Shown: piece after piece, positions 24,720 through 50,017 of the stretch
Position numbering within the stretch: position 1 is the stretch's first letter
Layout of the letters: the number at the start of each line of letters is the position of its first letter
DNA from: Bacteroidales bacterium
GTDB taxonomy: Bacteria > Bacteroidota > Bacteroidia > Bacteroidales > UBA3824
Reading direction: 5' to 3'
Length of the DNA stretch: 59,739 bases
NCBI GenBank assembly: GCA_017394445.1
Contig: JAFPYT010000347.1
Span: forward strand, 1 to 59,739
Notes under the pieces: model-generated
What the model saw: only the letters and a program-made list of their open reading frames with translations
Told to the model about the DNA's origin: nothing
Databases searched by the model: none
Made by a program: the position numbers and the translations under genes

Positions 24720-24819
24720 ATAAAGAATTTGTCCTAATATTATAAAAAAAGAGAAAAACGCGGAGCAATCCGCACCTGCGGCGGACAAAGCGTGACACAT
24801 TAAAATAGTTTTGCAGGTA

Positions 24820-25463: not shown

Positions 25464-25534
25464 GCAACCAAAAGTGGGTATTTTACCCCACTTTTGGTTA
25501 TGGTTTTTAAAAAACTGCAACCAAAAGTGGTATG
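25464..25534 (+). promoter_or_regulatory. Three-part repeat (A, A', A) forming mutually exclusive hairpins over the RT start codon
   Basis: A is GCAACCAAAAGTGGGTA at 25464-25480. A' is TACCCCACTTTTGGTT at 25484-25499, the complement of A. A second copy of A, GCAACCAAAAGTGGTA, lies at 25517-25532 and ends on the A of the RT ATG (25532-25534). The A/A' hairpin has 15 bp with a 1-nt bulge and is followed by a TTTTT tract. Confidence 0.5.
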
Positions 25535-26759: not shown

Positions 26760-29570
26760 TTACAAAAGTTCAAACAGCCTGCCCACCATTTCGGCTTCGG
26801 TGGCGTCTTTTTTCAGTCCGTACAATCCCAAAACAATGACATCCAATTCGCGGTGAGCCTCGGCAAGGTCGGTGAACAATAGGTCGAGGTTTTCTCCGTA
26901 AAGTGTGGCAAGCGACGCACCCTGCGAGAGATATTTTTCGCGGACGTCGAGGATTTTTTGGGCGGCGGTTGGGATGCGGGCTGCCAGCCCGCTATTGGCG
27001 GACGAGCCGTCCACATTCCATTCAGGCCACGGAAAATTGTTATAGACAATATCCTTGCTGTAACGGTAATCAGATTTCAACCGTCCCGCCACAACGCGCA
27101 TCCACGCATTATGAACTATCGAGGTGAGAATGCCAAATTCGTAGAGCGTGGCGTTGGGGATGATTTGGACGGCATTGGATGCGATTACGTCTTTGCTCAT
27201 ATATCCAATCGGAATATATTTGCGTTTCTCCGACGAATGACACGGAATCAACAAGAAATTAGAATCAGGCATATTTTCTATATGAAACCGAGTAGGTTTT
27301 TCTGCAAGTTTTCTTGTGCCCTCGCTTTTGCTTGCAAGCCGGAATTCTTTCACAGCCTTGATACGTTCCAAACATAACGGCATTTTTGCTAATTCCATTA
27401 AATCTGCATCGCCAAGCCAAAGGCAATAGCGTTTCCCATTATTGAGAAACTCTTCTGCGCCATAATAGGGGCGGAAATATTTTTTTGCATTTGGTTCAAG
27501 CGTTATGAAGTCGTGCATTTGTTCAGATGTAAACAAATAATGACCATTATCAATTGGCTTGCTTCCTATTCCAATTTCTGACACATTGCAAATAGGTTTG
27601 TTACGGCTTTCAACAAAAACATTTTTTCCATCAAGAAGATAGGCGTTTATATTTTTTGCTGTTTCGATTGTGCCGTCGGGGTTGTAGATGTGTTTGGTTG
27701 GTAGAGACGGTGTGCACACCGTCTCTACACCGGCAACCGAAAATCCGACAATCACACAATGCACGTGCGCCATTCCAACAGAATCGCTTTCCCAACGGAA
27801 TGTGCGGTAGGCAAAATTAATTACCAATCCGTCTTCAAAAAGCGGTTTCCAAAGATTTGCCACCTGTTCGCCTTGACAAATGGAATTGGTGGATACAAAG
27901 GCGCAACGGATTTTGGGATTATGTTTTATATAATCAAAAGCCTTTTTGTACCAACACGTTACATAATCCATATTACCAACATTTTTCCAATCCTTGCCAA
28001 AAATGCTGATGACATCCTCTTTTTGATTTGCGTTCATAATCCTTGCACCAACAAACGGCGGATTACCAACGATATAATCCAAATCTGACGGATTGACATA
28101 ATCTTCCCAATTGATGCGCAATGCGTTGACACAGTGGATTGTGGTGATGTCGTTGAGGGGCAATTCGGAAATGTTTTCGCCGAGGATTTGTTGCGTTTCG
28201 TGCAACATTTGGTTTTGAGCAATCCACAGGGCGGTCTTGGCGGTATCAACGGCAAATTCGTTGATTTCAAACCCGTGGAATTGCGATAATGATACCTTTA
28301 TTGACGACGATAATCCCGCAGTATGCAATTCGTATAGAATTTTGTTTTCTAATCGGCGGAGTTCCATAAAACAGTATGTCAAGAAATTGCCCGAACCGCA
28401 CGCCGGGTCGAGTATGCGGATTGAAGACAATTCGTCTTGAAGGCTCAGCAGAGCATCTCGTTTTGTGTTGAGGTCGGGAATTTTGGTTGCGTCGCTCAGT
28501 TGGGAGCGCAATCTGTCAAGAAACAACGGTGCAAGAGCCTTGTCGATATTGTCGGTGGTGGTGTAGTGCATACCGCCTTCGCGACGGTCTTTTGACGAAA
28601 GCGTACTCTCAAACATCGCCCCGAAAATTGCAGGGTTTATCGGGCTCCAATCAAATCCGAGCGAAAACCTTTGGGTGATATTGAAGGCAATGTTTTGTGA
28701 CAACTTCGGCAACTTGACATTGGCGGCAAAAAGTCCGCCGTTGGTATATGGAAATTCATTAAGCCTCACGTCCTCGCTGTCGCGTTCCGATGGTGGCGTG
28801 TTCAGTGTCTGAAACAACAATTTCAAATGCAGTCGGAACTCGTCGCTGTTTTGAATGAAGGCTTTGAGATAATTGCCAAACATATCCTTACGGCTAAACA
28901 CCAAAGCATCCTCGGCATAAAGGCAGAACACGAGTCTGACACAAAACACATTGATATTATGGAACAATTCGAGCGTCATCTCGTCCATGGAGTATTGGCG
29001 AAGGATGTCATTATAGAGTTCGCCGATTTGGAGCGCGGCGGCCTTGGAAACTGCGGTTTCGAGTGCCGTTACCGAAGATTCCTTGTCCAAAAGGAATTTA
29101 AGACGGTAATAGTTTTGTGAAACTCCGTTCTCGGTAAAAGGGATTATGTACGGCGGCTCCAACGGCTTGTTGCGGTCGTGGATTTCGATGGTGCGGAAGT
29201 TGGAGCATACGATGTAACGCGCCTTTTCGTTGAGCGGCAGCCAATTGTCGTAACGCTCAGCCTGTTGGAATGGCGTGAGCATATCGCCGCCCGACTGCGA
29301 CTCGGGCTTGTCGAGGTCGATGTGGCTACTTTTCTGTTCTATCAATACTTTGGTATGCGGAATATAAGCGTCGATAAATTTGGTGCTGCCCGAGGCGGGG
29401 TCTTTCACTTGTTTTTCGTAAATGATGGTATTAGGCAAGTCGATTTGCGGGTCAAAACAGCGCAGAATCGAGTTCCAAAACTGTTGACATTGCCCCTTTT
29501 CGTATCCTTCCTTGTTGTTCCAAAATTTGGTTTGAACAATTAATTTCTGACGTATATCCTTATCTTCCAT
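26760..29570 (-). CDS. MmeI-like type IIL/IIG restriction-modification enzyme (fused nuclease, N6-adenine methyltransferase and TRD)
   Basis: 936 aa. The N-terminus has a PD-ExK-like block (FIDAYIP...VLIEQKS). SAM motif I is LDPACGSGNFL and motif IV is VGNPPFVG (about nt 28047-28070). A long C-terminal specificity region follows. No separate R or S gene lies nearby. Confidence 0.75.
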   Translation of the reverse strand: MEDKDIRQKLIVQTKFWNNKEGYEKGQCQQFWNSILRCFDPQIDLPNTIIYEKQVKDPASGSTKFIDAYIPHTKVLIEQKSSHIDLDKPESQSGGDMLTPFQQAERYDNWLPLNEKARYIVCSNFRTIEIHDRNKPLEPPYIIPFTENGVSQNYYRLKFLLDKESSVTALETAVSKAAALQIGELYNDILRQYSMDEMTLELFHNINVFCVRLVFCLYAEDALVFSRKDMFGNYLKAFIQNSDEFRLHLKLLFQTLNTPPSERDSEDVRLNEFPYTNGGLFAANVKLPKLSQNIAFNITQRFSLGFDWSPINPAIFGAMFESTLSSKDRREGGMHYTTTDNIDKALAPLFLDRLRSQLSDATKIPDLNTKRDALLSLQDELSSIRILDPACGSGNFLTYCFMELRRLENKILYELHTAGLSSSIKVSLSQFHGFEINEFAVDTAKTALWIAQNQMLHETQQILGENISELPLNDITTIHCVNALRINWEDYVNPSDLDYIVGNPPFVGARIMNANQKEDVISIFGKDWKNVGNMDYVTCWYKKAFDYIKHNPKIRCAFVSTNSICQGEQVANLWKPLFEDGLVINFAYRTFRWESDSVGMAHVHCVIVGFSVAGVETVCTPSLPTKHIYNPDGTIETAKNINAYLLDGKNVFVESRNKPICNVSEIGIGSKPIDNGHYLFTSEQMHDFITLEPNAKKYFRPYYGAEEFLNNGKRYCLWLGDADLMELAKMPLCLERIKAVKEFRLASKSEGTRKLAEKPTRFHIENMPDSNFLLIPCHSSEKRKYIPIGYMSKDVIASNAVQIIPNATLYEFGILTSIVHNAWMRVVAGRLKSDYRYSKDIVYNNFPWPEWNVDGSSANSGLAARIPTAAQKILDVREKYLSQGASLATLYGENLDLLFTDLAEAHRELDVIVLGLYGLKKDATEAEMVGRLFELL

Positions 29571-29615: not shown

Positions 29616-30110
29616 TTATTTTTCAATCATATTTAGCAATTGTTCGTATAGTCTTTCGCTAATATGTCGTCCTGAATCTCTTAGAATTTCTATTGACTGT
29701 TTTATTTCTTCTTTTGTAATAATGGAATCTTGGTATGCTATGCCTAAAATACCAATAGTTCCCATAATTTTTATTCCCATACGGGTAGCCACTTCGCGAC
29801 CACGCACTTCGTCCATCAGAAGTAAATCTGCTTTTCCGTTGTCAGAAAGGAAAATGGCTTCGCTTTCTCCCAAATCAAGCCCGGCAGAACGGCGTAGGAG
29901 CGTAACATATCCTTCGTCAATTTTATTTACAACATATATAAAAGGTGTTTTTTTTATAATTTCCGCCTCAGCAAGGTATTTGGGATTGTCAGTAAGTTCT
30001 GCAAAAACACCTTTGGGAATCTGTACAGAACCGAATAGTTGTTGGAGTAAATCTAAACGATTAATTTTCAACAATGATATCAAAGGCGTTGTATCGGAAA
30101 TAACTATCAT
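29616..30110 (-). CDS. DUF3368-family PIN-like toxin
   Basis: 164 aa. The N-terminus MIVISDTTPLISLLKINRLDLL is typical of DUF3368/PIN-like proteins. Its start overlaps the upstream antitoxin stop by 4 nt. Confidence 0.7.
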   Translation of the reverse strand: MIVISDTTPLISLLKINRLDLLQQLFGSVQIPKGVFAELTDNPKYLAEAEIIKKTPFIYVVNKIDEGYVTLLRRSAGLDLGESEAIFLSDNGKADLLLMDEVRGREVATRMGIKIMGTIGILGIAYQDSIITKEEIKQSIEILRDSGRHISERLYEQLLNMIEK

Positions 30111-30397
30111 ACCCTTTCTTTTTTTAATGATCGGAATGTGCTTATATCATTCATCACTTCGCTCAGGTCGATATCAAAATAAGGAAACCCCATATTATCG
30201 TACAAATCAATTAAATCCATTTTTTTGATACCTAAAATTTCGGCTGCTCGTCCGTGCGAGATTATTTTGTTGTGGATATAGGGATACAATAGTAAGGCGT
30301 TGCGTTTGAGTTGGTTATCGTTTTCAAACGTATAATTGTCGGAAAGGTAGGTTTCCATAGCCTTAGGTACGGTTATTTGAATTGTAGCATATTCCAT
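30107..30397 (-). CDS. UPF0175-family antitoxin
   Basis: 96 aa. It sits upstream of and overlaps the DUF3368 gene, which is the classical UPF0175/DUF3368 pairing. An HTH-like segment is present (ISHGRAAEILGIKKMDLIDL). Confidence 0.6.
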   Translation of the reverse strand: MEYATIQITVPKAMETYLSDNYTFENDNQLKRNALLLYPYIHNKIISHGRAAEILGIKKMDLIDLYDNMGFPYFDIDLSEVMNDISTFRSLKKERV

Positions 30398-31844: not shown

Positions 31845-31968
31845 TTTATAATGTGTTTAAATATTATTGCATTATTATACGCTGCAAATTTAGAAATTTT
31901 TTTTGGAATGATGTAATGATAGGGTGAAAAAATTATAGTTCACGGAATGTGGGGAAAAATGGTTGATT

Positions 31969-32358
31969 CTAAAACCCCGGCCAATTATCTACTATTTTTA
32001 CCTTAATGTCAGCCCAATTATCAACTATTTGCACTTTAAGGTCGGGCCAACTGTCTACTACTTGAAATTTGCCGCAACTGTCTGGCCAATTGTCTACGAT
32101 TTTCACTTTTATGTCTGGCCAATTGTCTACGATTTGGATTTTTATGTCGGGCCAATTGTCAACAAATTGTATCTTGCCGTATAGATGGAACGTTTTGCCG
32201 TCTTTGGTGATGGTACATTCTTCTTTGTTGATGGTAATGTTGTCGTAAATGGTTTCGATACGGGTAATATCGTTGTTGTAAGCCGTTTGCCAATTGGTTT
32301 GACCGAATGTAGCCATTTGAACAAATAACATTAATGCTATGAGTATTATTTTTGTCAT
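31969..32358 (-). CDS. Secreted repeat protein with six 11-residue (V/I)VDNWPD(I/L)K(V/I)(K/Q) repeats
   Basis: 129 aa with a signal peptide (MTKIILIALMLFVQMATFGQ). The C-terminal 70 aa are an almost pure tandem repeat. Confidence 0.6.
   Translation of the reverse strand: MTKIILIALMLFVQMATFGQTNWQTAYNNDITRIETIYDNITINKEECTITKDGKTFHLYGKIQFVDNWPDIKIQIVDNWPDIKVKIVDNWPDSCGKFQVVDSWPDLKVQIVDNWADIKVKIVDNWPGF
31979..32182 (-). repeat. 33-bp in-frame tandem repeat (6 units, one of them 39 bp)
   Basis: Plus-strand units start with GGCCAATTGTCTAC at 31979, 32012, 32045, 32084, 32117 and 32150. The three at 32084-32182 are the most similar to one another. Confidence 0.9.
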
Positions 32359-32378
32359 AATTATTTGATTTATAATGA

Positions 32379-33152
32379 TTAAAAACCTTGATTGCTTTCC
32401 CCTACGAGTTTGGTGGTGAGGTCTTCACCTGTGGATACTATTTGAACGGTGTAGTCTTCGCCACTTTGCACTAATTTTATTTCGCCACAGCGACTGCAAA
32501 CTTCGCCGGGATGAATTTTAATGTCGTAATGGTTGGCTGAAACTTTCACTTTTACATCGCCACCAGATGTTACAACTTTAACTTTGCCGTTTAGCGGAAA
32601 TATGTTTCCGTTTTTGATGAGGGCGCAATTTTCTTTGTCGATAACGCTCTTGTTGTCAACTATTTGGTCTTGAGTGTGGTGGAATGGGGGATTGTTATTG
32701 TTGTTGTCTAAAGGTTCGTTGCTAATGGCGTAATATATTGATGGTGAATCTTTTATCTTTACCGTTGAACCCGGAAGAAATATTTCGCCTGAACCATCAT
32801 TTTTTGTGTTCCAATATTTAAAAGTGTGTTTTAGAAAATTCTCTGCCTCGTTTTGGTCAATTTTTTTTGGCGAAAAAATAATTTGAGGATAAAATGTAAG
32901 AAGTCCGTCGTTGATTTCAATTTTTTCGGGAAGGGTTATTTCCTTGCCAATAGTATCGTAGGTGAGTTGAACGCCGTTGATGCAATATGTTTTTAAGTAA
33001 ATAATGCCTAAATCATAAGTCTCGTTTTCAGGAATTTCTTGCTCTGAATTGTGACGGTTATGATTGTCCTTTTGCGGTCGATAATCGGTATTATCATCTG
33101 AATAACAACTTGTTATCAGCAACAAAAACAATATGGCACCAAAAGGTTTCAT
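32379..33152 (-). CDS. Hypothetical lipoprotein with a C-terminal domain paralogous to the neighbouring repeat protein
   Basis: 257 aa with a lipobox (LLITSC). The C-terminal segment IKNGNIFPLNGKVKVVTSGGDVKVKVSANHYDIKI... parallels TKDGKTFHLYGKIQFVDNWPDIKIQIV... of ORF 31969..32358. Confidence 0.55.
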   Translation of the reverse strand: MKPFGAILFLLLITSCYSDDNTDYRPQKDNHNRHNSEQEIPENETYDLGIIYLKTYCINGVQLTYDTIGKEITLPEKIEINDGLLTFYPQIIFSPKKIDQNEAENFLKHTFKYWNTKNDGSGEIFLPGSTVKIKDSPSIYYAISNEPLDNNNNNPPFHHTQDQIVDNKSVIDKENCALIKNGNIFPLNGKVKVVTSGGDVKVKVSANHYDIKIHPGEVCSRCGEIKLVQSGEDYTVQIVSTGEDLTTKLVGESNQGF

Positions 33153-33243
33153 AGCGAAAAGTGTAATTGACGTTTATTTTTCCAAATGTACAATTATTTT
33201 TGTTAATCATTATCACTTTTTGGGTAAAAAAACAGCCGCAAGA

Positions 33244-33269
33244 AATTCGGTAGTTTAAACTACCGAATT
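33244..33269 (-). terminator. 26-nt perfect palindrome AATTCGGTAGTTTAAACTACCGAATT, the probable operon terminator
   Basis: It lies 27 nt downstream of the DUF1016 stop. On the minus strand it is followed by TTCTTGCGGCTGTTTTTTT. A near-identical copy occurs inside the CDS at 34107-34133. Confidence 0.5.
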
Positions 33270-33295
33270 ATCTATTATGTATATTATGCTTATTT

Positions 33296-34423
33296 TCAAT
33301 TGTTTATAATCTTTTCTAAGTCTTCGATAGGCGGAAGTAATTCTTTTAGTTTGTTGTCAATATCATTTGGTGTCGTGTAGGTAGCAACGCCCATTGGTTT
33401 TCGATAATCTTGCAAAACATATTCAACATATGCTTTATCTGCTTTTTTGCAAAGAATTATTCCTACAGATGGATTTTCTCCGGGTAGTTTTTCGTCATCG
33501 TCAAGAATGCGAAGGTATGCGGCAAGTTGTCCCAAATATGATGTTTTAAATTGTCCTTTTTTTAATTCTACTACTACAAGTGCTTTTAATTCGCGGTTAA
33601 AAAACAATAGATCGATCCAATGATCGTGACCTAATTTGTCGTAATGAACTTGATGTCCTTTGTAAGTAAAAGACTTGCCGAATGTTAGTATAAAGTTTTT
33701 GATGTTCATTACAATTTTGCTTTCTATTACCCTTTCGTCAATATCCATTGGATCTGCAATGTCAATGTCTTCTACGTTGATGTAATCCAACAAATATGAG
33801 TCTTTGAATGATTGTAAAGTACGAATGGCCAATGCTTTATCGGGAATTGTTTTGAAAAAGTTGTTTGGTAAAGATTCTCTATGTTCGTAAACATTAGCCT
33901 TTATCATTTGTTCTAATTCATCGGCTTTCAATCTATGTTGGTATGCCATTTTGACATAGTATTTCCGTTCTTCGTAGGTTTTGGCATACCGAAAAATGGC
34001 GACATGGTGAGTGAATGAAATGTTTAAAAAGTCGGTTATTGGAAAATCTTCATCGTTAGTAAGATGCAATTGTTTTATAGTATCTTCTTTATAATCAATT
34101 GATTGTAATTCGGTAGTTTGAACTACCGAAATTACTTCAATATCTTTCCACGTTTCATAAAATCGTCTCATTAATTTAATGTTTTCTTCTGAAAAACCTT
34201 TTAATCCGGGAAGTTCTGCTTTTAACATACGACTAATTTGTGTTATTGAGCCTGTTCCCCAATAACCTTCGCGAGAGTGTTCAGATACATATCGTCCTAT
34301 GCCATAATACAGTGACAATTGTTCTTGGTTTACCATTTGTATCGCCCGTGATTGACTTTTGAGAATGGCATATTTAATGGCTTGTACTGCTGATAATAGT
34401 TCTGTGGAAAGATTGGTGTTCAT
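33296..34423 (-). CDS. PD-(D/E)xK nuclease domain protein (DUF1016 / YhcG family)
   Basis: 375 aa. The helical N-terminus (AIKYAILKSQSRAIQMVNQEQLSLYYGIGRYV) and the C-terminal core WIDLLFFNRELKALVVVELKKGQFK (D...E-x-K) are typical of this family. Confidence 0.75.
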   Translation of the reverse strand: MNTNLSTELLSAVQAIKYAILKSQSRAIQMVNQEQLSLYYGIGRYVSEHSREGYWGTGSITQISRMLKAELPGLKGFSEENIKLMRRFYETWKDIEVISVVQTTELQSIDYKEDTIKQLHLTNDEDFPITDFLNISFTHHVAIFRYAKTYEERKYYVKMAYQHRLKADELEQMIKANVYEHRESLPNNFFKTIPDKALAIRTLQSFKDSYLLDYINVEDIDIADPMDIDERVIESKIVMNIKNFILTFGKSFTYKGHQVHYDKLGHDHWIDLLFFNRELKALVVVELKKGQFKTSYLGQLAAYLRILDDDEKLPGENPSVGIILCKKADKAYVEYVLQDYRKPMGVATYTTPNDIDNKLKELLPPIEDLEKIINN

Positions 34424-34452: not shown

Positions 34453-36075
34453 TTAATCAAAACTTCTGTTATTCTCTTTTTCTTGTGGTGTCATAACAAA
34501 TTTCTTGTCATCGTTTTCTTCTTGTGGCGGGTTCTCGTTGTTCTTTTCACCCGCAAATTTTGCACGGGATTCTGCCCATCCTCTCAAACTTTTTATTTTC
34601 TTATCCATAGTTTTCGACAGAGGGACAATGCCTTTAATCGCATCCAACAAATGCTTTATCATTAGTTTTGGTTCGTTGGGATTTTCGGTGTAAGCGGCAA
34701 ACATTGCTTCGTTGATACACTCTTCTATTTCGGCTCCATTGAACCCAAAGGTTTCAGAAGCCAATTTGTCGAGAGAATAATTGTCAGGGTTGTGTCCCTT
34801 TCGTTTCAGATGGATAGAAAAGATGCTTTTGCGTTCGTTTTTTGTTGGCAAATCGACAAAGAATATTTCGTCAAAACGTCCTTTACGCAATAGTTCGGGA
34901 GGTAGTTGCGCAATGTCGTTGGCGGTGGCGACAACAAAAACAGGTTTGGTTTTCTCTTGCATCCATGTAAGAATTGTGGAGAAAATCCTTGCCGAAGTGC
35001 CGCCGTCGGTGTCACCGCTACTTTGTATTCCCGACAATCCTTTTTCTATTTCGTCAATCCATAGTACACAAGGAGCAACTGCTTCGGCGGTCATAATAGC
35101 CCTCCTAATGTTTTCCTCGCTGCTACCAACCTTGCCTTCAAACACTTTTCCAATGTCGAAACGCAGCAATGGCATATTCCACAGTGAGGAAATGCACTTT
35201 GCTGTAAGGCTCTTGCCACAGCCAGGAATGCCTGTGAGCAATACGCCTTTGGGTTCGGGGAGATTCCAAAGTTGTGCCTTGAAGTCGTATGCTAGCCTTC
35301 TTTGTTCAAGCCATTTTTTCAAGTGTTCCATACCGCCAATGTTCTGCAAGTTTTCGTTTACTTGAAAGTAGTCTAGCAATCCGCTTTTTTTGATTATTTG
35401 TTCTTTTTCTCGTGACACAATATTTGGAGAATCGTTGCCCAACTTGTTTTTGGCAGCGGCAAGACAATACGCCAAATCCGCTTCCATAACTGTCATTCCC
35501 AATGCAGAATCAATCAATTTTTTCTTCAATTCATCATTCAATTCGGTGTTTGCGTTTTCGGCTATACGCATAAGTACTTTCTCCAAATCGCCACGACCAG
35601 GTAAAGGCATTTCTACAACAGTAATGTACTTTTCCAATTCGACAGGAAGTTTCATAACAGAAGATACTATTATTATGTGTTTCCTATAAAAACGTAGTTT
35701 TTCTGCCAATTGTCGAAGTAAAACTTTGATATTTGTATCTTCGATGTATTCATGGAAGTCTTCGATGATGAATAATTCTGCCTTAGCACTATCATCTTTG
35801 TTTTCAATACGTTTCCCAATAAATTTCAACAATTCTTCGGGATTTTCTTTTAAAGATATGCTTTCTATTTCGTTGGTTTTTAAATCTGTTTTATTAAGAC
35901 CGTCAACACAATTCCACTCATAATAAGTGTAATCCTTTTTTAAGTCTCTAGCAATACCTTTGATTTTGTCTTTGGTGCGATTGTATTCAAACGTGGTAAG
36001 ATACAATACCGGATAATATGCTTTGAGCATGTTCTGTATTTGTTCAAATACATTGTTTTCTTTGTGAAGTATCAT
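34453..36075 (-). CDS. Classic-clade AAA+ ATPase (Ycf46-like architecture: N-terminal non-ATPase domain plus one AAA module)
   Basis: 540 aa. Walker A is [14 protein letters not shown] and Walker B is VLWIDEIEK. Sensor-1 is VVATAN and the arginine-finger region is [14 protein letters not shown]. Confidence 0.85.
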
Positions 36076-36077
36076 AG

Positions 36078-36713
36078 TTATTTAAGGTTTAAGATTTGTG
36101 TTTGTTGTAATTTGCTTTTGTTGATTCGGTCGCGATATTTTAGCGGAACTTCCTTTTTTGTCATCACACGTTTTGAACTGAAATGCAAATCCACTTCATC
36201 CATTGCTGCATGTGCACGCTTGTTAACATCATCGGGTAGATAGTTGGAATCGCTTATAACCGTTCCGTCATCAAGTATTGTGAACTTTATTTGTCCTACA
36301 GGTTCTGTTTCGTTCTTGTCTTTACTGCGACCTTCCATATAGAACGATACTTTCTCAGTGGCAGTTTCAACGAATTTGTCGTTGCTTTTGTAGGTAAATC
36401 CTTTTGCCTTGAACTGATTGATAATCATATTCTTGGAGTATTCTACATTGAGTTTATTGTATACCGTTTGAAGTTGATTTACATATTCACGGGCATTTCC
36501 CAAATAATATGTGTTGTATGTAACGTCAGTGCCTTTTACACGTAGGGCATACTCGCCGTACAACTTTTGGCTGACACCGATTCCCGTTACCAACAGTTCG
36601 TCTGAGCCGCGTGTTATATATTTCCAACCGAGTTGGTCACACGCCTGAACCAAACATTCGCGATTCATCACGGCATTGTTGCGTACGAATTTAGATGTTT
36701 CAAATCTTGACAT
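36078..36713 (-). CDS. Hypothetical 211-aa protein (N-terminus reminiscent of DUF1257/Ycf35)
   Basis: It is separated from each neighbouring gene by 2 nt. The N-terminus MSRFETSKFVRNNAVMNRECLVQACDQLGW resembles the DUF1257 N-terminal pattern as I recall it. This is unverified. Confidence 0.55.
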   Translation of the reverse strand: MSRFETSKFVRNNAVMNRECLVQACDQLGWKYITRGSDELLVTGIGVSQKLYGEYALRVKGTDVTYNTYYLGNAREYVNQLQTVYNKLNVEYSKNMIINQFKAKGFTYKSNDKFVETATEKVSFYMEGRSKDKNETEPVGQIKFTILDDGTVISDSNYLPDDVNKRAHAAMDEVDLHFSSKRVMTKKEVPLKYRDRINKSKLQQTQILNLK

Positions 36714-36715
36714 AG

Positions 36716-38779
36716 TTACTTTCTCCTTTTTTTATTATATTTTGATTTGTTTTTATTTTGATTTGCAAATACTTTAAGTAATTGAACCTGTTCTTCTGTG
36801 TTGATAAATGATTCGGTTTTGCTGATGATAGGATATTGTTCGCGAATAATGTCCAATCGTTTTTGGAAATCATTTTTTCTATCTGAGGGTATTGTTTGAT
36901 TTTGCACTTTATTTATCTCGGCAGATAATGCCGCTAGTTCTCTTGTGTAGATGTTTTGTTTCACTCGGATAAGTTTATTATCTTTTATTTCCTCAAATTC
37001 AGCATACTTTTTTTCAAAAGTTTCATATCCTTTATCTTTGAATGTTTGAAGTTTACCATTGCTTAATTGTTCTATTTTTTGAAGAATATCCTTGTTCATT
37101 ATCGAATTCGGCTGACATAGTTCGTTTATTTCTTCAACTGCCTTACTCAAGTATTTTTCGCCGAATTGTAGGAAAAGATTTTTGTATTCTTCATCGTTTT
37201 CGCTATTCCAATCTAATCGAGTCATTTCTTCCTGACGAAAGTTCTGCGTACCTTGTTTTACAAAGAACGATAAAATATTGTAACTTCCTGTATAATATAG
37301 GTTTTTGTCTTTTGATTTCAACCAAACCCGTTTATAATGGAACGATGGCAGTTGGTGTATATAGAAGTTTTGATACTTTTTATCCAATTCATGCAGTTTT
37401 TCCAACGCTTCTTCGTCAGCCATATTATCAATGCTATTTTCTGGCATAGAATAGGCAATGAAAATACGTCCGCCCTTGCGAAGGTAATTTTCAAAGAATG
37501 GAATTCTTCGTTGGGTTGCATATTTTTTTATCCACGGACTTATAATCCACAGTTCGTCAGCGGTTGTGTCGAACAGCCGTTTGAGTTCAATTTCAAATTC
37601 CAATGAATTGAAATGACGTTTTTGTTGCGCTACTTCGTTTTTTATAGTGGTTATTTTTTGTATATCGTTGTTTTCTACTGCGACATCTATTTCTTTTTGT
37701 TTTTGGATTAGTTCTTTTTCTGAAATAGATTGACTTTCTTGTTTAGGCTCTGTGGTGTTTCCTATTTCAAAATCATCTTCTTCGGATTCTCTGATAAGTT
37801 TTTCAAGAAGTTCAGTTTTCTTATCATCCAACAAATCTAAGGATTCTGAGAGTATGTCAATAATAGCATCCTTTTTTTCATCATAAACAAGTGTTCGGAC
37901 AACATTATCTCTAAAATTTTCTAACAAAACAACCCAAAGTTTGGCAGAGAAACATTCGGATTTGATGAAATCGCACGATTGAAGAATAAAATTTTTTGTC
38001 GGAAAATGAATTTCAGGTGCTTGAATTTCTGCCAATGACTTAACATCGTCAATATCTTCTGGAATTATATTTTGTGGGAAATAAGGCTGTTTTTCACTTT
38101 TGAGATTGCTAAATATCTCTTTGGTATCACTTTTTAAATTGCTTGTAGAGTCAATATACAATTCAAAATCACGTTCAAAAGTTGAAAATTTAACTCCATT
38201 TTTAGCGTATTCTTTTCCTGTGTCTGTCAGCCAATAAAGGCTTTCATCACCATCTATCATTTCATCTTTTTTCAAGTTGTTGATGACAGATAAAAGAATA
38301 TTTTTTTCTGCTGGATCGGTTGTAATATCGAAACCTAAAATTTTGCCAATTTGTTGTGCTGAACTTTCGCCTTTGAGTAATATAGCACAAATGGCTTCGT
38401 CAAAATGATTAAAATCAACAGGTTGCGAGCATACTCCTTTGTATTTAGCCACGATGTACTTCCAATCGAAATCTGTAAAACCTATAATTCGTTCTATAAG
38501 TTTTTTTTCTTTGCTTGCAGCATCTATTATCTTTAATTCTAATGGTATAGACACTTCGTCTGTTGTGACAGGAGAAGATGTTTGATCTACTAATAGTTCC
38601 TTTCCTTTTGACGCAGACAAAAATCCTTTAATGTTGGAATACACGAAGTCAATTATATCAGCATTGAGAGTTTCATTTGGATCTTCTTCACACTGATGGC
38701 CGTTTTTGTTGAGGAAATCGGTAATAACAGATATGCCAATATTCAGGTCGCGTGATATTTTTGATAGTTTTTTGCTCAT
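36716..38779 (-). CDS. PLD-like (HKD-superfamily variant) putative nuclease with an N-terminal HTH-like motif and a coiled-coil tail
   Basis: 687 aa. The N-terminus MSKKLSKISRDLNIGISVITDFLNKNG is IF2-N-like/HTH-like. The PLD-type blocks are ELWIISPWI and LPSFHYKRVWLKSKDKNLYYTGSYNILS. The H-x-K lies at about nt 37332-37340, with K where the D usually sits and GSxN present. The C-terminus is K/E-rich. Confidence 0.6.
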   Translation of the reverse strand: MSKKLSKISRDLNIGISVITDFLNKNGHQCEEDPNETLNADIIDFVYSNIKGFLSASKGKELLVDQTSSPVTTDEVSIPLELKIIDAASKEKKLIERIIGFTDFDWKYIVAKYKGVCSQPVDFNHFDEAICAILLKGESSAQQIGKILGFDITTDPAEKNILLSVINNLKKDEMIDGDESLYWLTDTGKEYAKNGVKFSTFERDFELYIDSTSNLKSDTKEIFSNLKSEKQPYFPQNIIPEDIDDVKSLAEIQAPEIHFPTKNFILQSCDFIKSECFSAKLWVVLLENFRDNVVRTLVYDEKKDAIIDILSESLDLLDDKKTELLEKLIRESEEDDFEIGNTTEPKQESQSISEKELIQKQKEIDVAVENNDIQKITTIKNEVAQQKRHFNSLEFEIELKRLFDTTADELWIISPWIKKYATQRRIPFFENYLRKGGRIFIAYSMPENSIDNMADEEALEKLHELDKKYQNFYIHQLPSFHYKRVWLKSKDKNLYYTGSYNILSFFVKQGTQNFRQEEMTRLDWNSENDEEYKNLFLQFGEKYLSKAVEEINELCQPNSIMNKDILQKIEQLSNGKLQTFKDKGYETFEKKYAEFEEIKDNKLIRVKQNIYTRELAALSAEINKVQNQTIPSDRKNDFQKRLDIIREQYPIISKTESFINTEEQVQLLKVFANQNKNKSKYNKKRRK

Positions 38780-38785
38780 AGGTGT

Positions 38786-41700
38786 TTACAGGTTTTTCAG
38801 TTGTTTGACATCTATTCTGTGCATTTGGGAAATAGCCTCGGCATATTCGGGTTTGTTGGCGAAATGTTTTTCATTTCCTACAACTATGAGTAATCTCTTG
38901 GCTCTCGAAAAACCAACGTTGACACGTTGCAATTCTTTTGCAAACCCCAAAGCATAAGGATAATGCGTGTTTTTTTGCTGTTTCCCATTTTCGTCAATCT
39001 GAATATTGCTCCTTACTGTTGATACAATGATGATATTTCGTTCCATACCTTGGAATCGGTCAACAGTGTTAATTCTAAATGGAATCTGAAACTCATTATT
39101 GTACTTGTGCAGTTCAAAATTTTTCCACTGTTCTTTTGAAAAGCCTAGATACAACTGTTTACGAATTTCGTTCATCTGAGGCATGTAGTATGTTATCACT
39201 CCAATTTCCTTATCTTCATCTTTCTTAAAATAATCTATATACTCTTTAAAACCTTTTGCTCCCGTTAAGGCTTTAAGAACTGATTTAATAGCATCAATTT
39301 CGCCTTGATTTTCGTAAGAGGTTCCTACCTTTTTTTCTGGTGTTTCCACGTTAACCCAAATTGCATGGACTTTGGGTTCAATAAACGGCTGCATTGTTAA
39401 CCCATGCCAACGGCTTGCCTTGTCGGAAATGTCGGGAATATCCATGTGTTGCTTGATTCCGCAAATCAATCCGTTTTCCAATTCTTCTTGATCTTTGTAA
39501 AATTGCGAAATGCAATTCATAATTTGTTCGTGCATTCGGAATTGAGTGTCCAAACTAGCAACAATTTCTTTTGGCGCATTGACAAATAGTTTTTCAAATT
39601 GTGATGTCTTATAATCTTGGTTAGTCCAATTTTCTATCAAGTCTTTTGCTCCTATTGCTTCCAATGCTTCGCCAAACTCTTTTTCATCAAGCATTGGCGG
39701 CAACTGTTTGTGGTCGCCAATTATGATTACTTTTTTGCCTAATGTAAGTGGCAAAACAAGTTCGGGTGGAGTTGCTTTGCTCGCCTCGTCCATAATAACA
39801 ACATCAAAGACAGGGTCGCCTTGGGTTTCCTGATTTTTTTGAAACATTGATTGGTACGCATTGGCAAAGTTCCCGCTTCCACACTCGCTACAAGTTGCAG
39901 CGAAAACATTCACGTGTTTGAAATATTCTTCAGAAAAAATGGATTTAACGTACGATTGGTTGGCTAATCCTTTTTTCCATTTTCTTACTATTTCAGAATA
40001 TTCGCTATCTTCACAACATCTGTTGCCAATGCTATTTATCCAATCACAAATAGCATTGTTTTTGAAGTTGTCTTCTTCCTTTGAATTTTTGGCTTTAAGC
40101 CATTGTTGCATACGCTCGTTTGAATACATTTTGCCCTCGTCTTCAAACTTTTCGATGTTGCCAATACGTATGGAACGTACCATTTTCTTGCCTCGCAGAC
40201 GTTCTAAAGCGTTGTCAACGGCAAGGTTTGTCTGAGAGGTTATTAGTATTTTAGATTCGGGGTTTTGTAACAATGTCTGCCATATAATTTCAGCGATTAC
40301 TGTGGTCTTGCCTGTTCCCGGAGGACCTTGAATCAGTGCCATATCTGTTGCGATTAACGCTTTTGCAACTGCTTCCAATTGTTTTGGCTGATTTTTTAGT
40401 AAAGGCTCGTTCAGATTGGACAGAATGCGTTGTTTAGTTTCTTCCAAATCTTCTGTAGATGGTCGAGCATAATTTGGGTCGAATAAAAAATTTGGAAGGT
40501 TTTTGTTTGCTGGATAGCCTATTATACCAATACCTTTCCTAAATTCTCCCGGTGTGGTCACTTTTGCCATAGCCTTTATCATTCTGCCAATGTTGGTTAG
40601 TTCTCCTGGAAATATTGGCTTAATAAAGCCATTTTTGAGTTTTTGCACATTTTCATGAGATTGAATAATAAAATCTTCAAAATCTTCTTTGATTCTGAAT
40701 TTCAGTCTGTTGCGTTCTTTATAAACCAACGTTCCGATTTGTATTCCCTCTCTAAAGACAGCATCATCTCCATATCCTTCGATTTTCTTTTGTAATGTTT
40801 CGTTCTGATCTTTGGTCAAAAAAACAAACGATGCCATACGGACATTTTTGTAGATTTCTTTTTCTCGTTCCCCTTCCAAAGATTTGTTTTTTTCAAAGTG
40901 GTAAGTTGTATGTCCTAATTCGTTTTCAAATGAACAAGATAGGATATAATCGTATTTTGAACATTCGTATTTAAATATTTTTTTGAAGTTTTCACGTTCA
41001 TCTTCAGAGTTGAATTTGTACGAAAACGAAATTCTTGTATATTTTTTAAAAGGGTCGTAATCAACCTTCAGGTTATGTTTGCGAATAGCGTTTTGAAAGT
41101 TAGTAATAATGGATTTCCTGAATTGTTCATAATCTGAGTTGAGACAAACAAAAAAAGACGGTTTGTATGGCTTGTATTCCAATTCGATACTTGGTACTAC
41201 CGCAGTTATACGTTGAAGTTCCTTTTTGTAATCATCGTCAGAATTTGCAGTAATGGTTATCGCAGATTTCCTAATATCTACGATTGATTTGTCTTGTAAG
41301 TCGGTTAGTGTTTTGACATCCCTCAACAACTGTTTTTGCTTTTCTGATTGTAGCGGAAAGGCAAAAATGTATCTTGTTGGCAATTGACGTATTCTCCAAT
41401 CTTCATTTTTATCTTGAATCTCAGTAAGTTTTGTCTTGAAATCAACTCGTTGTTTTGTTTGGTATTCACCATCAACTATTTCGAGTCCATCAACTTCTAC
41501 AAAAGAATTGCTGTTATCTTTATTACCAAAACGATAAATCGTATTTTGGAGTTGAAGTCCAAAATCTGAAAACAAATCATTTTTCACCGGAGCCGCTACT
41601 TCAATGACCAATTGTGATGAATCATTCGAAATATAGGGGTGTGCTTTGGTCAGCCCATTATCTACTAAAACCTTTTTTATCTCGCTAACAGAAGGTAGCG

Positions 41701-42826
41701 TATTAATTTCAGTTTTTATATTGATTTTCAATACAATATCATTACGTCTTTCCACAGAGGCAATCTCCGCAAAATTATCATCTATACACCTTTTTATATG
41801 TGGATAATCATTTTCCGTAATATCAATCTCTCCAAAAGATGAAATTACCAACTCATCATATCCGTAATCGTCTGATAATTTTTGTTGTATTTGGTTGTAT
41901 ATATCCTCTTTGGAATTGTCGTCGGTATATTTGAATGTTAACTCTCCTATTATTTCATTGGTTGGTGTATTTGTGGATTTTTCAAAAAAATATTCCGATG
42001 CCATTGCTTCAAGTTGCGAGATTTCGTCTGGACTCAAAACCCTGTACGTATCAAATTCAATAAAAGCCGAATCCTTATTAACGGCATAGTCAGACAAATC
42101 GTTTTCTGAAAATAAATCTTCTATATTTTCCTCGAACTTCTTGTTCAAATCATCTTCGTTGATTTCGATGTCAACGTATGATGAGTTATCTCTGCTACCG
42201 TTTTTGTCGGTGTATGGATTAGTTATGGTTTTGATTTTCCAAACAATCTCCTTTTGTTTTACAAGTTTTTTGAGCGCATTTACATAGTTGTCCCAAATTT
42301 TTCTATCTTTTTCCTTGTTAAGGTCAATAGTAGGGATGTGGAGAGCATCAACTTTTTGATAAAAATCAGTGAATTGTCGACCTTTGCCTCTATTATCTTT
42401 TGAATATAATGAAAAAGCACATTCTCTTGACTCTACATCTTTGTTAGGAGCAACAATAAAAACATTTTCTTTCCCTTTTTTGACAAAATATGAATATAAC
42501 TTATCAAATTGATTGATAGGTTCTTCGTTGATTGAACATTGAAATTCAATAGCCTTATCTTCCTCGATAGGAATAAGTATTTTATGAACAGAATTATTAT
42601 GTTTAATTCCATAATTATCTGTTCGTTCATATGTTTTAATTTTCTGAAAATAACACGTCCGAGATTCTGTGAGCAACCTTTTCATCTCGCTAAACCGCAA
42701 TGTGTTATTTTCGTTACGTTCCCAAGTACCTTCAAAGTCATCCTTGAATTTTAATACGATTTCTATTGGCGAATCATCTGTTTCGCTGAAATCTATTGGC
42801 TGATATTGTCTTTCAAATTCTGACAT
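38786..42826 (-). CDS. Giant protein: unknown N-terminal region of about 790 aa fused to a UPF1/DNA2-like SF1B helicase
   Basis: 1346 aa. The helicase motifs are I LIQGPPGTGKTT (about nt 40311-40336), Ia ILITSQTNLAVDN, II VVIMDEASKA, III VIIIGDHKQLPP, IV LDTQFRMH, V TVDRFQGMERNIIIVSTVRS and VI VNVGFSRAKRLLIVVG. Confidence 0.85.
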   Translation of the reverse strand: MSEFERQYQPIDFSETDDSPIEIVLKFKDDFEGTWERNENNTLRFSEMKRLLTESRTCYFQKIKTYERTDNYGIKHNNSVHKILIPIEEDKAIEFQCSINEEPINQFDKLYSYFVKKGKENVFIVAPNKDVESRECAFSLYSKDNRGKGRQFTDFYQKVDALHIPTIDLNKEKDRKIWDNYVNALKKLVKQKEIVWKIKTITNPYTDKNGSRDNSSYVDIEINEDDLNKKFEENIEDLFSENDLSDYAVNKDSAFIEFDTYRVLSPDEISQLEAMASEYFFEKSTNTPTNEIIGELTFKYTDDNSKEDIYNQIQQKLSDDYGYDELVISSFGEIDITENDYPHIKRCIDDNFAEIASVERRNDIVLKINIKTEINTLPSVSEIKKVLVDNGLTKAHPYISNDSSQLVIEVAAPVKNDLFSDFGLQLQNTIYRFGNKDNSNSFVEVDGLEIVDGEYQTKQRVDFKTKLTEIQDKNEDWRIRQLPTRYIFAFPLQSEKQKQLLRDVKTLTDLQDKSIVDIRKSAITITANSDDDYKKELQRITAVVPSIELEYKPYKPSFFVCLNSDYEQFRKSIITNFQNAIRKHNLKVDYDPFKKYTRISFSYKFNSEDERENFKKIFKYECSKYDYILSCSFENELGHTTYHFEKNKSLEGEREKEIYKNVRMASFVFLTKDQNETLQKKIEGYGDDAVFREGIQIGTLVYKERNRLKFRIKEDFEDFIIQSHENVQKLKNGFIKPIFPGELTNIGRMIKAMAKVTTPGEFRKGIGIIGYPANKNLPNFLFDPNYARPSTEDLEETKQRILSNLNEPLLKNQPKQLEAVAKALIATDMALIQGPPGTGKTTVIAEIIWQTLLQNPESKILITSQTNLAVDNALERLRGKKMVRSIRIGNIEKFEDEGKMYSNERMQQWLKAKNSKEEDNFKNNAICDWINSIGNRCCEDSEYSEIVRKWKKGLANQSYVKSIFSEEYFKHVNVFAATCSECGSGNFANAYQSMFQKNQETQGDPVFDVVIMDEASKATPPELVLPLTLGKKVIIIGDHKQLPPMLDEKEFGEALEAIGAKDLIENWTNQDYKTSQFEKLFVNAPKEIVASLDTQFRMHEQIMNCISQFYKDQEELENGLICGIKQHMDIPDISDKASRWHGLTMQPFIEPKVHAIWVNVETPEKKVGTSYENQGEIDAIKSVLKALTGAKGFKEYIDYFKKDEDKEIGVITYYMPQMNEIRKQLYLGFSKEQWKNFELHKYNNEFQIPFRINTVDRFQGMERNIIIVSTVRSNIQIDENGKQQKNTHYPYALGFAKELQRVNVGFSRAKRLLIVVGNEKHFANKPEYAEAISQMHRIDVKQLKNL

Positions 42827-42853: not shown

Positions 42854-42861
42854 GCAAATAT
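42854..42861 (-). promoter_or_regulatory. -7 promoter box TATATTTG for the helicase operon
   Basis: The reverse complement of CAAATATA matches TAnnTTTG. It lies 28 nt upstream of the ATG at 42826 and directly downstream of the terminator of the preceding gene. Confidence 0.5.
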
Positions 42862-42862
42862 A

Positions 42863-42904
42863 ATAAAAAAAATCAACCGTGCGAAAAAAAATCACACGGT
42901 TGAT
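42863..42904 (-). terminator. Intrinsic terminator of the C1-peptidase gene
   Basis: Perfect 11-bp stem AATCAACCGTG 42870-42880 / CACGGTTGATT 42894-42904. On the minus strand it is followed by TTTTTTTT (plus-strand A-run 42863-42870). Confidence 0.8.
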
Positions 42905-42927
42905 TAGTATTTTTATTTAAAATTCAA

Positions 42928-48820: not shown

Positions 48821-50017
48821 TTAATACATCATTCCAAACAACCACAAGGGAATTTTGTTGCCAAAACCAATCTCAATTTCGTCGGCGGCTATGAAACTGT
48901 CGGGAATGTCTTTGATTTGGGTGAATTTTTTGCCACGTTCGCCTATTTCAAATAAGTATCGATTGTCGACAAGGAGGTCGCCCTGAGTTGGAAATTGTAT
49001 CGAGTGCGACTGGTTCATCATAGATGCAAAAAACGACTCGCGCAAAGTGCCTGTGTCAACGGGCTGAGTAAGAGCCTGCATTAGATTGGGGTTGTTGAAA
49101 AGTATTTTTTCGGGTTTTCCTAATGCTTTTAAACCTTTGCCTTCGGTGTATAGCAACCTTAACAATGCGGAGTGGTGCAACAAAGAGAGCAATTTGATGA
49201 GTTGGTTTCGTGTAGTTGCAAGTGCAGCGCAAAGCGATGATATATTGAGCGTAAATGGTGCCATCTGCGCCAATAAAACAAGCAACCGTTTGGCTTTGCG
49301 CAGCGTGTCGTACTCAATGTTCTCAACTGTGGGAATATCGTTTTCTATTATTGTGGAAATCACATTTTGGATACGTTCGTAATAACTTTCTAATGAAGTG
49401 GTTTCAAGTAAAAATGGGTAATAACCCTGCTGAACGTATTTTTCAAAATGTGGAAGCACTTTTATCTTTGCGGTTATTTGGGAGGCAATTTGCTGATGGT
49501 TAGTTATTATTTCATTTAGTGAAACTGCCGGGATATCGGCTATTTTATTGATAGCCAAATATTCACGAAACGATAAACCCTCTAAATGGTACATTCTTAA
49601 ACGACGTGAAAGGTCGGCCTTTGCATTGTCGATTTCTAACAGCGAAGAGCCTGTAAATGTGATATGTAGGGTAGGATAGCCGTCGTAAATATTCTTGATT
49701 TCGCGAATCCAGTTAGGATAACGGTGCACTTCGTCGAGAAAAATATGTGTAACGCCGTGAGTATAAAGATATTCGGTAAGTTCCATAAGAGTATGTGTAC
49801 TAAACCAAATGTGGTCGAGTGACACATAAAAAGCGTTGTTTCTATTTGTGAATGAGCGTTTTATGTGTTGTAGAATCAGTGTGGTTTTGCCCACACCTCT
49901 TGCACCCTTGATACCTATTAATCGTTCGTTCCAATCTATCTTAGAGTATAAGTATCTGAAATACTCGAATTTAGTATCTTCTAACCTTCTGTTATATGCC
50001 AAAATAAGTGATTCCAT
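48821..50017 (-). CDS. AAA_14-type ATPase with DUF4143 C-terminal domain
   Basis: 398 aa. Walker A is GARGVGKTT and Walker B is HIFLDEVH. The C-terminal DUF4143-like region carries an E...K block. Confidence 0.8.
   Translation of the reverse strand: MESLILAYNRRLEDTKFEYFRYLYSKIDWNERLIGIKGARGVGKTTLILQHIKRSFTNRNNAFYVSLDHIWFSTHTLMELTEYLYTHGVTHIFLDEVHRYPNWIREIKNIYDGYPTLHITFTGSSLLEIDNAKADLSRRLRMYHLEGLSFREYLAINKIADIPAVSLNEIITNHQQIASQITAKIKVLPHFEKYVQQGYYPFLLETTSLESYYERIQNVISTIIENDIPTVENIEYDTLRKAKRLLVLLAQMAPFTLNISSLCAALATTRNQLIKLLSLLHHSALLRLLYTEGKGLKALGKPEKILFNNPNLMQALTQPVDTGTLRESFFASMMNQSHSIQFPTQGDLLVDNRYLFEIGERGKKFTQIKDIPDSFIAADEIEIGFGNKIPLWLFGMMY

Follow-up and report, generated by a model that had tools for sequence, protein, structure and literature searches.

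A four-gene cassette of Bacteroidota that looks like a Mokosh-like helicase–nuclease system extended by an AAA+ ATPase module

Introduction

Type I Mokosh is composed of two genes, encoding MkoA (a Ser/Thr kinase together with a COG1112 helicase) and MkoB (a phospholipase D (PLD)-family protein), and in both type I and type II Mokosh mutants of the helicase and PLD active sites lose defence (Millman et al. 2022; 10.1101/2022.05.11.491447). Here we analyse a cassette of four genes encoded on the minus strand of a 59,739-nucleotide (nt) stretch of a Bacteroidales genome (GTDB UBA3824; contig JAFPYT010000347.1 of assembly GCA_017394445.1), which as a whole is referred to as the window. In order of transcription the cassette encodes a UPF1-like superfamily 1 (SF1) helicase (gene 1), a PLD-like nuclease (gene 2), a protein of 211 amino acids (aa) (gene 3) and a classic-clade AAA+ ATPase (gene 4). 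An earlier interpretation of the letters, here called the sequence-only reading, had taken this arrangement for a Mokosh-like core joined to a small-protein/AAA+ module, possibly with a further nuclease.

The cassette resembles type I Mokosh in that a UPF1/COG1112 SF1 helicase is followed by a separate gene for a PLD-family nuclease, and in its occurrence in defence islands. Gene 1 matched the PADLOC MkoA model (PDLC03920) at 2e-110 over aa 611–1331, the first ∼450 profile positions being unmatched. The match of gene 2 to PADLOC MkoB was weak and partial (8.5e-9 over aa 294–479), and the protein has a PLD fold and an invariant HxK...GSxN motif. On this evidence the Mokosh-like core of the sequence-only reading stands. 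In contrast to type I Mokosh, the cassette helicase carries no Ser/Thr kinase, genes 3 and 4 are conserved together with the helicase–nuclease pair, and in 22 of 48 cassettes the PLD site is dead and a PIN domain is present. The helicase and the PLD protein of type I Mokosh were thus found, its kinase and its two-gene composition were not; strict membership of type I fails because the kinase domain is missing and because the conserved unit has four genes.

A second precedent is provided by the CoCoNuTs, which are classed as a subclass of type IV restriction. In passages of their description (PMC11090510) a UPF1-like helicase (CnuH) is typically followed by CnuE, in which an elongated winged helix and a coiled coil are joined by a nuclease that can be swapped. 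The same passages add an McrB-type GTPase with an NxD motif (CnuB) and McrC (CnuC), predict RNA targeting, and assign to some CoCoNuTs a CDC48/SpoVK-like tandem ATPase that is active in its C-terminal domain alone and is linked to ribosome rescue. Within what is described there (Bell et al. 2024), the CnuH–CnuE types closest to our cassette are type III-C, with its PLD effector, and the extended type III-A, with its CDC48/SpoVK-like ATPase. By description, genes 1 and 2 resemble the CnuH/CnuE layout, with winged-helix matches, long helices and a C-terminal nuclease in gene 2, and in both cases a hexameric NTPase module is coupled to the pair. Unlike the CoCoNuTs of those passages, the cassette has no McrB-like GTPase, McrC, TerY-P or VWA genes, its only other NTPase being of the classic AAA clade; its AAA+ protein lacks the leucine-rich repeat (LRR) and β-barrel tail and has the novel 211-aa protein as its partner. 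PIN is likewise not among the CnuE effectors in the described passages (PMC11090510).

Gene 4 invites a third comparison, as a classic-clade AAA+ protein that has a second protein beside it in a defence operon. The same is said of IetAS, a system attributed to Gao and colleagues (2020) that reportedly combines the classic-clade AAA+ protein IetA with the subtilisin-like protease IetS. Gene 4 matched the PADLOC IetA model (4.5e-22) through the ATPase core only. In contrast to IetA it scored 70 bits against the NCBIfam IteA model, for which the cut-off is 510, and it possesses an N-domain family of its own (phrog_8638). No IetS-like protease domain was detected in genes 1–4 with Pfam or PADLOC.

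Two eukaryotic pairs offer analogies. UPF1–SMG6, from nonsense-mediated decay (NMD), joins a PIN_4 endonuclease, as found in sister cassettes, to a UPF1-family helicase, and MOV10L1–Zucchini/PLD6 of the piRNA pathway combines a UPF1-family helicase with a single-HKD PLD protein, as in the window. The cassette differs from both in being a prokaryotic operon with an AAA+ partnership of its own, and the likeness is one of analogy, not orthology. A link between Mokosh and piRNA factors has been proposed (10.1101/2022.12.12.520048).

Full-text literature searches returned no paper describing the four-gene content, and neither the DefensePredictor paper nor the nuclease–NTPase paper contained a matching system. 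Together with the lack of a gene 3 model in PADLOC, Pfam, NCBIfam and PHROGs, this upholds the earlier view that the gene content is not that of a described system. By its sequence the cassette looks like a Mokosh or CnuH–CnuE helicase–nuclease system that has been extended by a dedicated AAA+ module and exists in PLD and PIN variants, undescribed in the libraries and papers searched. As each of its halves has a precedent, it is not new in kind.

Conservation of the cassette

Co-occurrence of the four genes was tested from three independent anchors, namely gene 3, the N-domain of the AAA+ protein and the scaffold of gene 2, using one-genome-per-species contigs of 185,579 species genomes. Starting from gene 3, 41 of 52 non-redundant loci carried all four genes in the order of the window (helicase, then genes 2 and 3, then AAA+), and the remaining 11 mostly reflected contig ends or a missed gene call. 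The AAA+ N-domain returned at least 587 loci; among the best 80, the cassette was present in about 35 of the 35 Bacteroidota loci with enough flanking sequence. The gene 2 scaffold contributed 33 new loci, of which 30 were informative and ∼27 complete. Gene order was maintained down to ∼40% identity in gene 3, with junctions that overlapped or measured 1–11 nt (for example in locus L019); the conserved operon reads as translationally coupled.

The small-protein/AAA+ module is therefore kept with the Mokosh-like core in dozens of Bacteroidota genomes, and chance juxtaposition of the 211-aa and 540-aa proteins with the helicase and gene 2 is unlikely. With hundreds of homologues for each gene and an order that is kept in other genomes, all four are real genes and not chance open reading frames (ORFs). 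We hold with considerable confidence, from these comparisons, that the four genes constitute one conserved unit.

Within this unit, genes 3 and 4 were consistently better conserved than genes 1 and 2. In locus L004, for instance, genes 1 and 2 were 54% and 55% identical, genes 3 and 4 70% and 71%. As judged by sequence, such a pattern fits a conserved machine coupled to a fast-evolving sensor and effector. The distribution of the cassette is sparse and patchy, amounting to a few dozen of the species genomes. Cultured carriers include Bacteroides bouchesdurhonensis, B. gallinaceum, Flavobacterium glaciei, Cellulophaga fucicola, Polaribacter marinus and Lacinutrix species, which makes the system testable now.

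The helicase and the nuclease

Gene 1 gave Pfam matches to AAA_11 (1.1e-37) and AAA_12 (4.8e-39) across aa 815–1319. All the SF1B/UPF1-like motifs that had been read in its C-terminal part were found in place, between aa 834 and 1304: GPPGTGKT (aa 834), VIMDEASKA (1010), GDHKQLPP (1037), TQFRMH (1094), TVDRFQGME (1254) and VGFSRAK (1304). Motifs I, II, III, V and VI were 95–100% conserved across 41 homologues. We also considered whether the helicase belongs to the ‘PLuB system’ (NCBIfam NF040671). This assignment was rejected, as the score lay far under the cut-off, and a literature search found no PLuB paper.

While the helicase core stays conserved among relatives, identity in the N-terminal region drops to 22–47%. 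Pfam scans (E≤0.1) detected neither Pkinase nor any other domain in aa 1–810 or in the N-regions of eight other cassette helicases, and a profile sequence search of the PDB with this region gave no match. A weak internal repeat relates aa 295–361 to aa 559–636 (P 4.8e-4). This variable ∼800-aa region is probably a sensor of foreign nucleic acid.

Gene 2 had no match in Pfam, NCBIfam or PHROGs, and none in a PDB sequence search. Its AlphaFold2 (AF2) model, built on 32 homologues, reached a pLDDT of 80. In the model a short N-terminal helical domain is followed by a winged-helix/β-rich region (approximately aa 80–335), a coiled coil with long helices, a PLD-like α/β nuclease domain (approximately aa 405–525) and a helical tail. 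The best Foldseek matches in the PDB all belonged to the PLD superfamily (SauUSI, MITD1, BfiI, NgoAVII, PLD1/2, Tdp1 and Zucchini; probability 0.97–1.0), and MarR-type winged helices were also among the matches. The single HKD-like motif noticed previously (FHYKRVW...GSYNILS) is thus real and sits in a PLD fold; its residues H481, K483, G498, S499 and N501 are invariant in 32 homologues. Single-HKD PLD nucleases such as Nuc, Zucchini and BfiI dimerise to build one active site. With only one HKD motif, gene 2 would therefore need to form a dimer. The model portrays gene 2 as a scaffold-plus-effector protein, in which a predicted PLD nuclease is mounted on a putative DNA/RNA-binding scaffold.

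The motif HxK...GSxN was kept in 25 of 48 non-redundant gene 2 proteins, that is, in all those of PLD type. A further 22 retained the PLD-like domain without the catalytic H, K and N and had a PIN_4 domain appended at the C-terminus (E 1e-16 to 1e-24); the one remaining protein was unassigned. Profile–profile comparison established that the two types are homologous over nearly the full length of the PLD type (aa 78–652), including the PLD-like domain (probability 100%, E 8.6e-58). These sequences indicate that in PIN-type cassettes the PLD site died and a predicted PIN RNase was added. PLD-type and PIN-type cassettes were interleaved along the scale of gene 3 identity, a hint that the replacement happened more than once. 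The PLD nuclease of the sequence-only reading applies to the window; it is not universal in the family, where a PIN RNase takes its place in about half of the cassettes.

Because a dead PLD site was replaced by PIN, the nuclease appears to be the selected function of the cassette and its effector. PIN_4 is the family of SMG5, SMG6, Swt1 and PhoH2, of which SMG6 cuts single-stranded RNA and not single-stranded DNA, and the OST-HTH domain is predicted to bind RNA (PMC5499597). Pfam detected an OST-HTH/LOTUS domain in three of nine PIN-type gene 2 proteins scanned (L014, 2243–5023; L064, 3881–6658; L066, 5833–8289). LOTUS domains of eukaryotic germ-granule proteins bind RNA helicases or RNA. The exchange of a dead PLD site for an RNA-specific PIN domain with LOTUS is a strong comparative clue to the substrate. 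As sister cassettes carry a PIN RNase with or without LOTUS, RNA is the most likely substrate of the family, and from these sequences we rate an RNA target at slightly under an even chance. The L064 protein additionally has a Sigma54_DBD-like C-terminus.

Distant gene 2 proteins were not recognised by the PADLOC MkoB model. Because PADLOC sees no MkoB in distant cassettes, current automated tools miss the system in gut, rumen and marine Bacteroidota.

The AAA+ ATPase and gene 3

Gene 4 comprises a family-specific N-domain (aa 1–265) and a Cdc48-D2-like classic-clade module (aa 278–465). Pfam identified AAA (PF00004, 1.2e-28) and AAA_lid_3, the closest PDB match was the D2 ring of VAT/p97/Cdc48 (3e-57), and the full-length protein matched phrog_8638 at 1.7e-141. 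The motifs GIPGCGKS (aa 282), VLWIDEIEK (337), ATAN (383) and RKGRFDE (397) lie where the sequence-only reading, which had called ORF4 a classic-clade AAA+ ATPase, placed them. In 82 homologues K288 (Walker A), D341 and E342 (Walker B), N386 (sensor-1), R397 and R400 were 100% conserved, and the module is predicted to be active. The possibility that the N-domain is a degenerate AAA module was rejected, as self-comparison related it only weakly to the lid region (P 0.017).

Pore loop 1 (aa 306–323) has conserved F312, V316 and G317. Position 315, which is aromatic in classic unfoldases, is E, I, L or K in the cassette AAA+ proteins, and L or F in relatives outside cassettes. The non-aromatic position speaks against the cassette AAA+ proteins being classic threading unfoldases.

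Relatives of gene 4 occur beyond the cassette. Full-length proteins of 30% identity were found in cluster O mycobacteriophages, where the neighbouring genes were uninformative. Relatives in Verrucomicrobiota, Armatimonadota, Bifidobacteriaceae and spirochaetes were 31–35% identical and had quite different neighbourhoods. Several of these non-Bacteroidota loci (L067–L106; for example L082, 7138–11642) carried upstream genes for an ECF sigma factor and a radical-SAM protein, together with one for a protein of ∼74 aa. The locus set also contained eight DUF1257 (ycf35)-like proteins; in most cases the gene lies directly downstream of that for the AAA+ protein and is itself followed by one for a ∼66-aa protein. 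The AAA+/DUF1257 loci of other phyla and phages share with the cassette an AAA+ protein of the same family and N-domain (31–35% identity) and a small α+β neighbour protein; they differ from it in having neither helicase nor nuclease. To judge by gene content, the non-Bacteroidota loci look like separate uncharacterised modules built around the ATPase.

Gene 3 had no match in Pfam, PADLOC, NCBIfam or PHROGs, and a PDB sequence search was equally negative. It has 559 close homologues with ∼60 invariant positions, among them the extreme N-terminus MSRFExSKF. When 1.84 billion representative proteins were searched with its profile, only 80 matched, mostly fragments of the same family, and this exhaustive search revealed no remote relatives. 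No gene 3 relatives were found in the viral contigs of IMG/VR. The AF2 model (pLDDT 79) had no significant structural neighbour by Foldseek in the PDB or in BFVD. A HORMA/TBP/RnlA-like fold was rejected (best PDB E 0.017, TM ≤0.35), and the best BFVD match was unconvincing (E 4e-4, but TM 0.24 and root-mean-square deviation (rmsd) 19.5 Å). DUF1257 (PF06868) gave a weak signal only (hhalign P 0.0029, probability 10.7%): Pfam reported no match for gene 3 of the window at E≤10, and E 0.09 for its homologue in L028. Short segments of two longer proteins of the representative library, P0298 (444 aa) and P0317 (1123 aa, five matched stretches), matched the gene 3 profile and could represent fusion or repetition of a portion of the gene 3 fold.

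Proposed function and alternatives

The reading we favour, with moderate confidence, is that of one four-component anti-phage or anti-mobile-element defence operon, in which a helicase–nuclease core is accompanied by an AAA+ accessory module. The UPF1-like SF1 helicase would serve as the ATP-driven motor and its N-terminal region would sense foreign nucleic acid. Gene 2 would dock on the helicase via its winged-helix/coiled-coil scaffold and bring the nuclease, with its single-HKD PLD domain dimerising for activity, and the helicase–nuclease complex would attack foreign single-stranded nucleic acid, most probably RNA. We envisage the AAA+ protein as a hexamer that has a single active ring, with the 211-aa protein serving as its dedicated partner. 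Rather than acting as a general unfoldase, the two would license, assemble or reset the helicase–nuclease complex, in a role comparable by analogy to that of the McrBC-type NTPase in CoCoNuTs or of Trip13–HORMA in CBASS. We infer that the proteins form a physical complex. A defence function of the cassette appears likely from its homologies and neighbours; the suggestion that the AAA+/gene 3 pair is regulatory is a tentative one.

Several points weigh against this reading. Defence is argued from homology and genomic context, and gene 3 is proposed as a partner or adaptor of the ATPase from adjacency and co-conservation. An AAA+ protein of the gene 4 type is no defence signature by itself, because such proteins also occur in mycobacteriophages and beside ECF sigma, radical-SAM and DUF1257 genes. 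For the PLD-type copy in the window, an RNA target is extrapolated from the sister cassettes, since PLD nucleases can also cut DNA. Finally, partial versions exist: the helicase and gene 2 occur without genes 3 and 4 in L111 and L115 (Dysgonomonas capnocytophagoides DSM 22835), the L128 cassette looks degenerate, L023 lacks the AAA+ gene and continues with ligA, and L027 lacks the helicase. The gene 3/4 module is therefore not absolutely obligatory. The rare two-gene versions would fit a core-plus-accessory logic, and the partial cassettes, together with the orphan gene 3 copies in L022, L028 and L029, represent useful natural deletion mutants.

An alternative that we regard as unlikely reverses the logic. 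Here the AAA+/gene 3 pair would be the effector, by which a protein of the phage or the host is extracted or unfolded (at stalled ribosomes, for instance), and the helicase–nuclease pair mainly the sensor. The resemblance of gene 4 to the Cdc48/VAT D2 unfoldase ring is in line with this, as is the link of the CDC48-like ATPases of some CoCoNuTs to ribosome rescue in the described passages (PMC11090510). The aromatic pore-loop residue is, however, missing from the cassette AAA+ proteins, and the replacement of a nuclease whose PLD site had died singles the nuclease out as the effector under selection.

Two independent systems could also lie side by side, a Mokosh-like helicase–nuclease pair and an IetAS-like pair of small protein and AAA+ ATPase, which we consider quite unlikely. 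The two-gene versions in L111 and L115, the IetA match of gene 4, the occurrence of the AAA+ family elsewhere without a helicase and the orphan gene 3 copies could all be explained in this way. Against it, gene 3 and the AAA+ gene never formed a stand-alone pair in the sampled Bacteroidota loci and always followed gene 2 with junctions of 1–30 nt, over the full span of divergence. The missing IetS-like protease and the low IteA score argue in the same direction.

It is very unlikely that the cassette has no part in immunity and is instead a housekeeping or stress module for RNA surveillance and turnover, or a mobile island's addiction module. UPF1, SMG6-type PIN proteins and Cdc48 are indeed eukaryotic RNA and protein quality-control factors, and DUF1257 (ycf35), which adjoins AAA+ relatives elsewhere, is a conserved cyanobacterial gene family. 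Such a role accords poorly with the sparse and patchy distribution, the low-GC island, the defence-gene neighbours and the strong MkoA homology. A five-gene system that includes the adjoining YhcG PD-(D/E)xK nuclease, which the sequence-only reading had entertained, is next to ruled out: the 29-nt gap without a terminator, the hairpin that comes only past YhcG and the same five-gene arrangement on contigs with identical gene 2 would suit it, but no YhcG homologue adjoined any other cassette in the loci examined, and YhcG is itself a stand-alone PADLOC candidate (PDC-S02).

Returning to the single defence operon, a broader interpretation can be offered as speculation, with the odds against it. 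The cassettes would form an unnamed Bacteroidota family of four-component, RNA-surveillance-type immunity, in which one machine is made up of a UPF1-like helicase, a nuclease that is interchangeably a Zucchini-type PLD or an SMG6-type PIN protein (with or without LOTUS), and a Cdc48-like AAA+ ring whose adaptor has a new fold, with the AAA+ pair as its licensing switch. If true, this would be a bacterial counterpart joining parts of eukaryotic NMD, piRNA and Cdc48 quality control. The union of domains from NMD (UPF1, SMG6), the piRNA pathway (MOV10L1, Zucchini) and Cdc48 could inform the origins of those pathways. The cassette also gives a new route into the still unknown mechanism of Mokosh, with a helicase–nuclease pair wired to a dedicated AAA+ protein and adaptor; type I Mokosh itself resisted purification in a broad biochemical survey (10.1101/2025.07.10.664194).

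Operon layout and genomic surroundings

Table 1. Positions of the cassette genes, their parts and adjacent signals in the window
Feature	Position	Strand	Remarks
Gene 1	38786-42826	minus	ORF, 1346 aa
Gene 1, N-terminal region, aa 1-814	40385-42826	minus	without recognisable domain, fast-evolving
Gene 1, UPF1-like SF1 helicase core, aa 815-1346, MkoA-like	38786-40384	minus	AAA_11/AAA_12, PADLOC MkoA
Gene 2	36716-38779	minus	ORF, 687 aa
Single HKD-like motif of gene 2, H481-x-K483...G498-S499-x-N501	37277-37339	minus	FHYKRVW aa 480, YTGSYNILS aa 496
Gene 3	36078-36713	minus	ORF, 211 aa
Gene 4	34453-36075	minus	ORF, 540 aa
YhcG/DUF1016 PD-(D/E)xK ORF, neighbour outside the system	33296-34423	minus	29 nt after gene 4
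Putative promoter, Bacteroidetes-type -7 box TATATTTG (TAnnTTTG)	42855-42862	minus	consensus match
Strong intrinsic terminator of upstream C1-peptidase gene	42871-42905	minus	14-bp stem, 6 GC pairs, then T8

The ORF list bears out the four minus-strand genes at the lengths first given, with spacers of 6, 2 and 2 nt between genes 1/2, 2/3 and 3/4 (Table 1). The terminator ascribed to the preceding gene is likewise present (42905–42871 in the direction of transcription), and by its sequence it should isolate the operon from read-through. The TATATTTG box precedes the ATG of gene 1 by 28 nt. Its presence had been noted correctly; the coordinates then given, 42854–42861, are one base off. The GC content of the cassette block is 0.33–0.38, as opposed to 0.42–0.45 in the flanks.

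The family and the spacing of the fifth ORF had been called correctly (PADLOC PDC-S02, 1.9e-107; Pfam DUF1016_N and YhcG_C), and in the window YhcG may be co-transcribed with the cassette. A 28-nt palindrome, AATTCGGTAGTTTAAACTACCGAATT, forms a hairpin at 33243–33270, downstream of YhcG. It had been taken for the first convincing hairpin with a U-tract. The hairpin exists; as a terminator it convinces only in part, since the T-run on the gene strand begins ∼12 nt past the stem and the terminator scan made no call on that strand. The palindrome recurs within the YhcG coding sequence (34106–34133, 93% identity) and, as a weaker third copy, within gene 1 (41181–41204); a repeat element and a recombination scar are both possibilities.

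Seen by its gene content, the region around the cassette reads as a defence island. It contains an RT-5 RNA (Rfam RF03026, 85.8 bits) at 24770–24874 and a 402-aa reverse transcriptase at 25532–26740 that matches PADLOC RT_UG26 (DRT class) at 3e-149, which together look like a DRT-type defence element with a non-coding RNA. An MmeI-family type IIG restriction-modification enzyme (26760–29570; PADLOC 5e-302) comes next; after it lie a PDC-S70 candidate (29616–30110) and an ORF of 96 aa (30107–30397) whose PDC-S70 match is weak, so that the island reaches far past the cassette. Between PDC-S70 and the cassette lie a serine-palmitoyltransferase-like gene, two small ORFs and YhcG. Among 120 genes flanking other cassettes, PADLOC identified DruE of Druantia (5), pAgo (3) with SIR2 (4), type IIG (2), PDC-S68 (2) and others, and in L019 a type I HsdR gene is located directly upstream of the cassette.

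No direct repeats resembling attachment sites were found flanking the island, and no tRNA genes were found in the window. A 31-nt similarity between positions 31873 and 44488 was rejected as a pair of island repeats, as it represents a pair of promoter regions. On the far side of the cassette, 6 kb upstream, a 398-aa AAA_14 protein (48821–50017) matched PADLOC PDC-S01 at 2e-24 and is possibly another defence gene.

A wolf-gut metagenome scaffold of 73.8 kb (L107; ENA ERZ28655796) carries an identical gene 2 within the same cassette, together with YhcG and the two small ORFs. In place of the GAPDH and GH2 genes that the window has upstream of the peptidase gene, the scaffold carries a series of small ORFs, so that this flank differs between close relatives. 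The two small ORFs of the window (129 and 257 aa; 31969–33152) share a C-terminal domain (phrog_6462) and lie in the same low-GC block. For the 129-aa ORF a Septknot match (PF19647) was recorded, and six 33-nt tandem repeats are located at 31974–32177.

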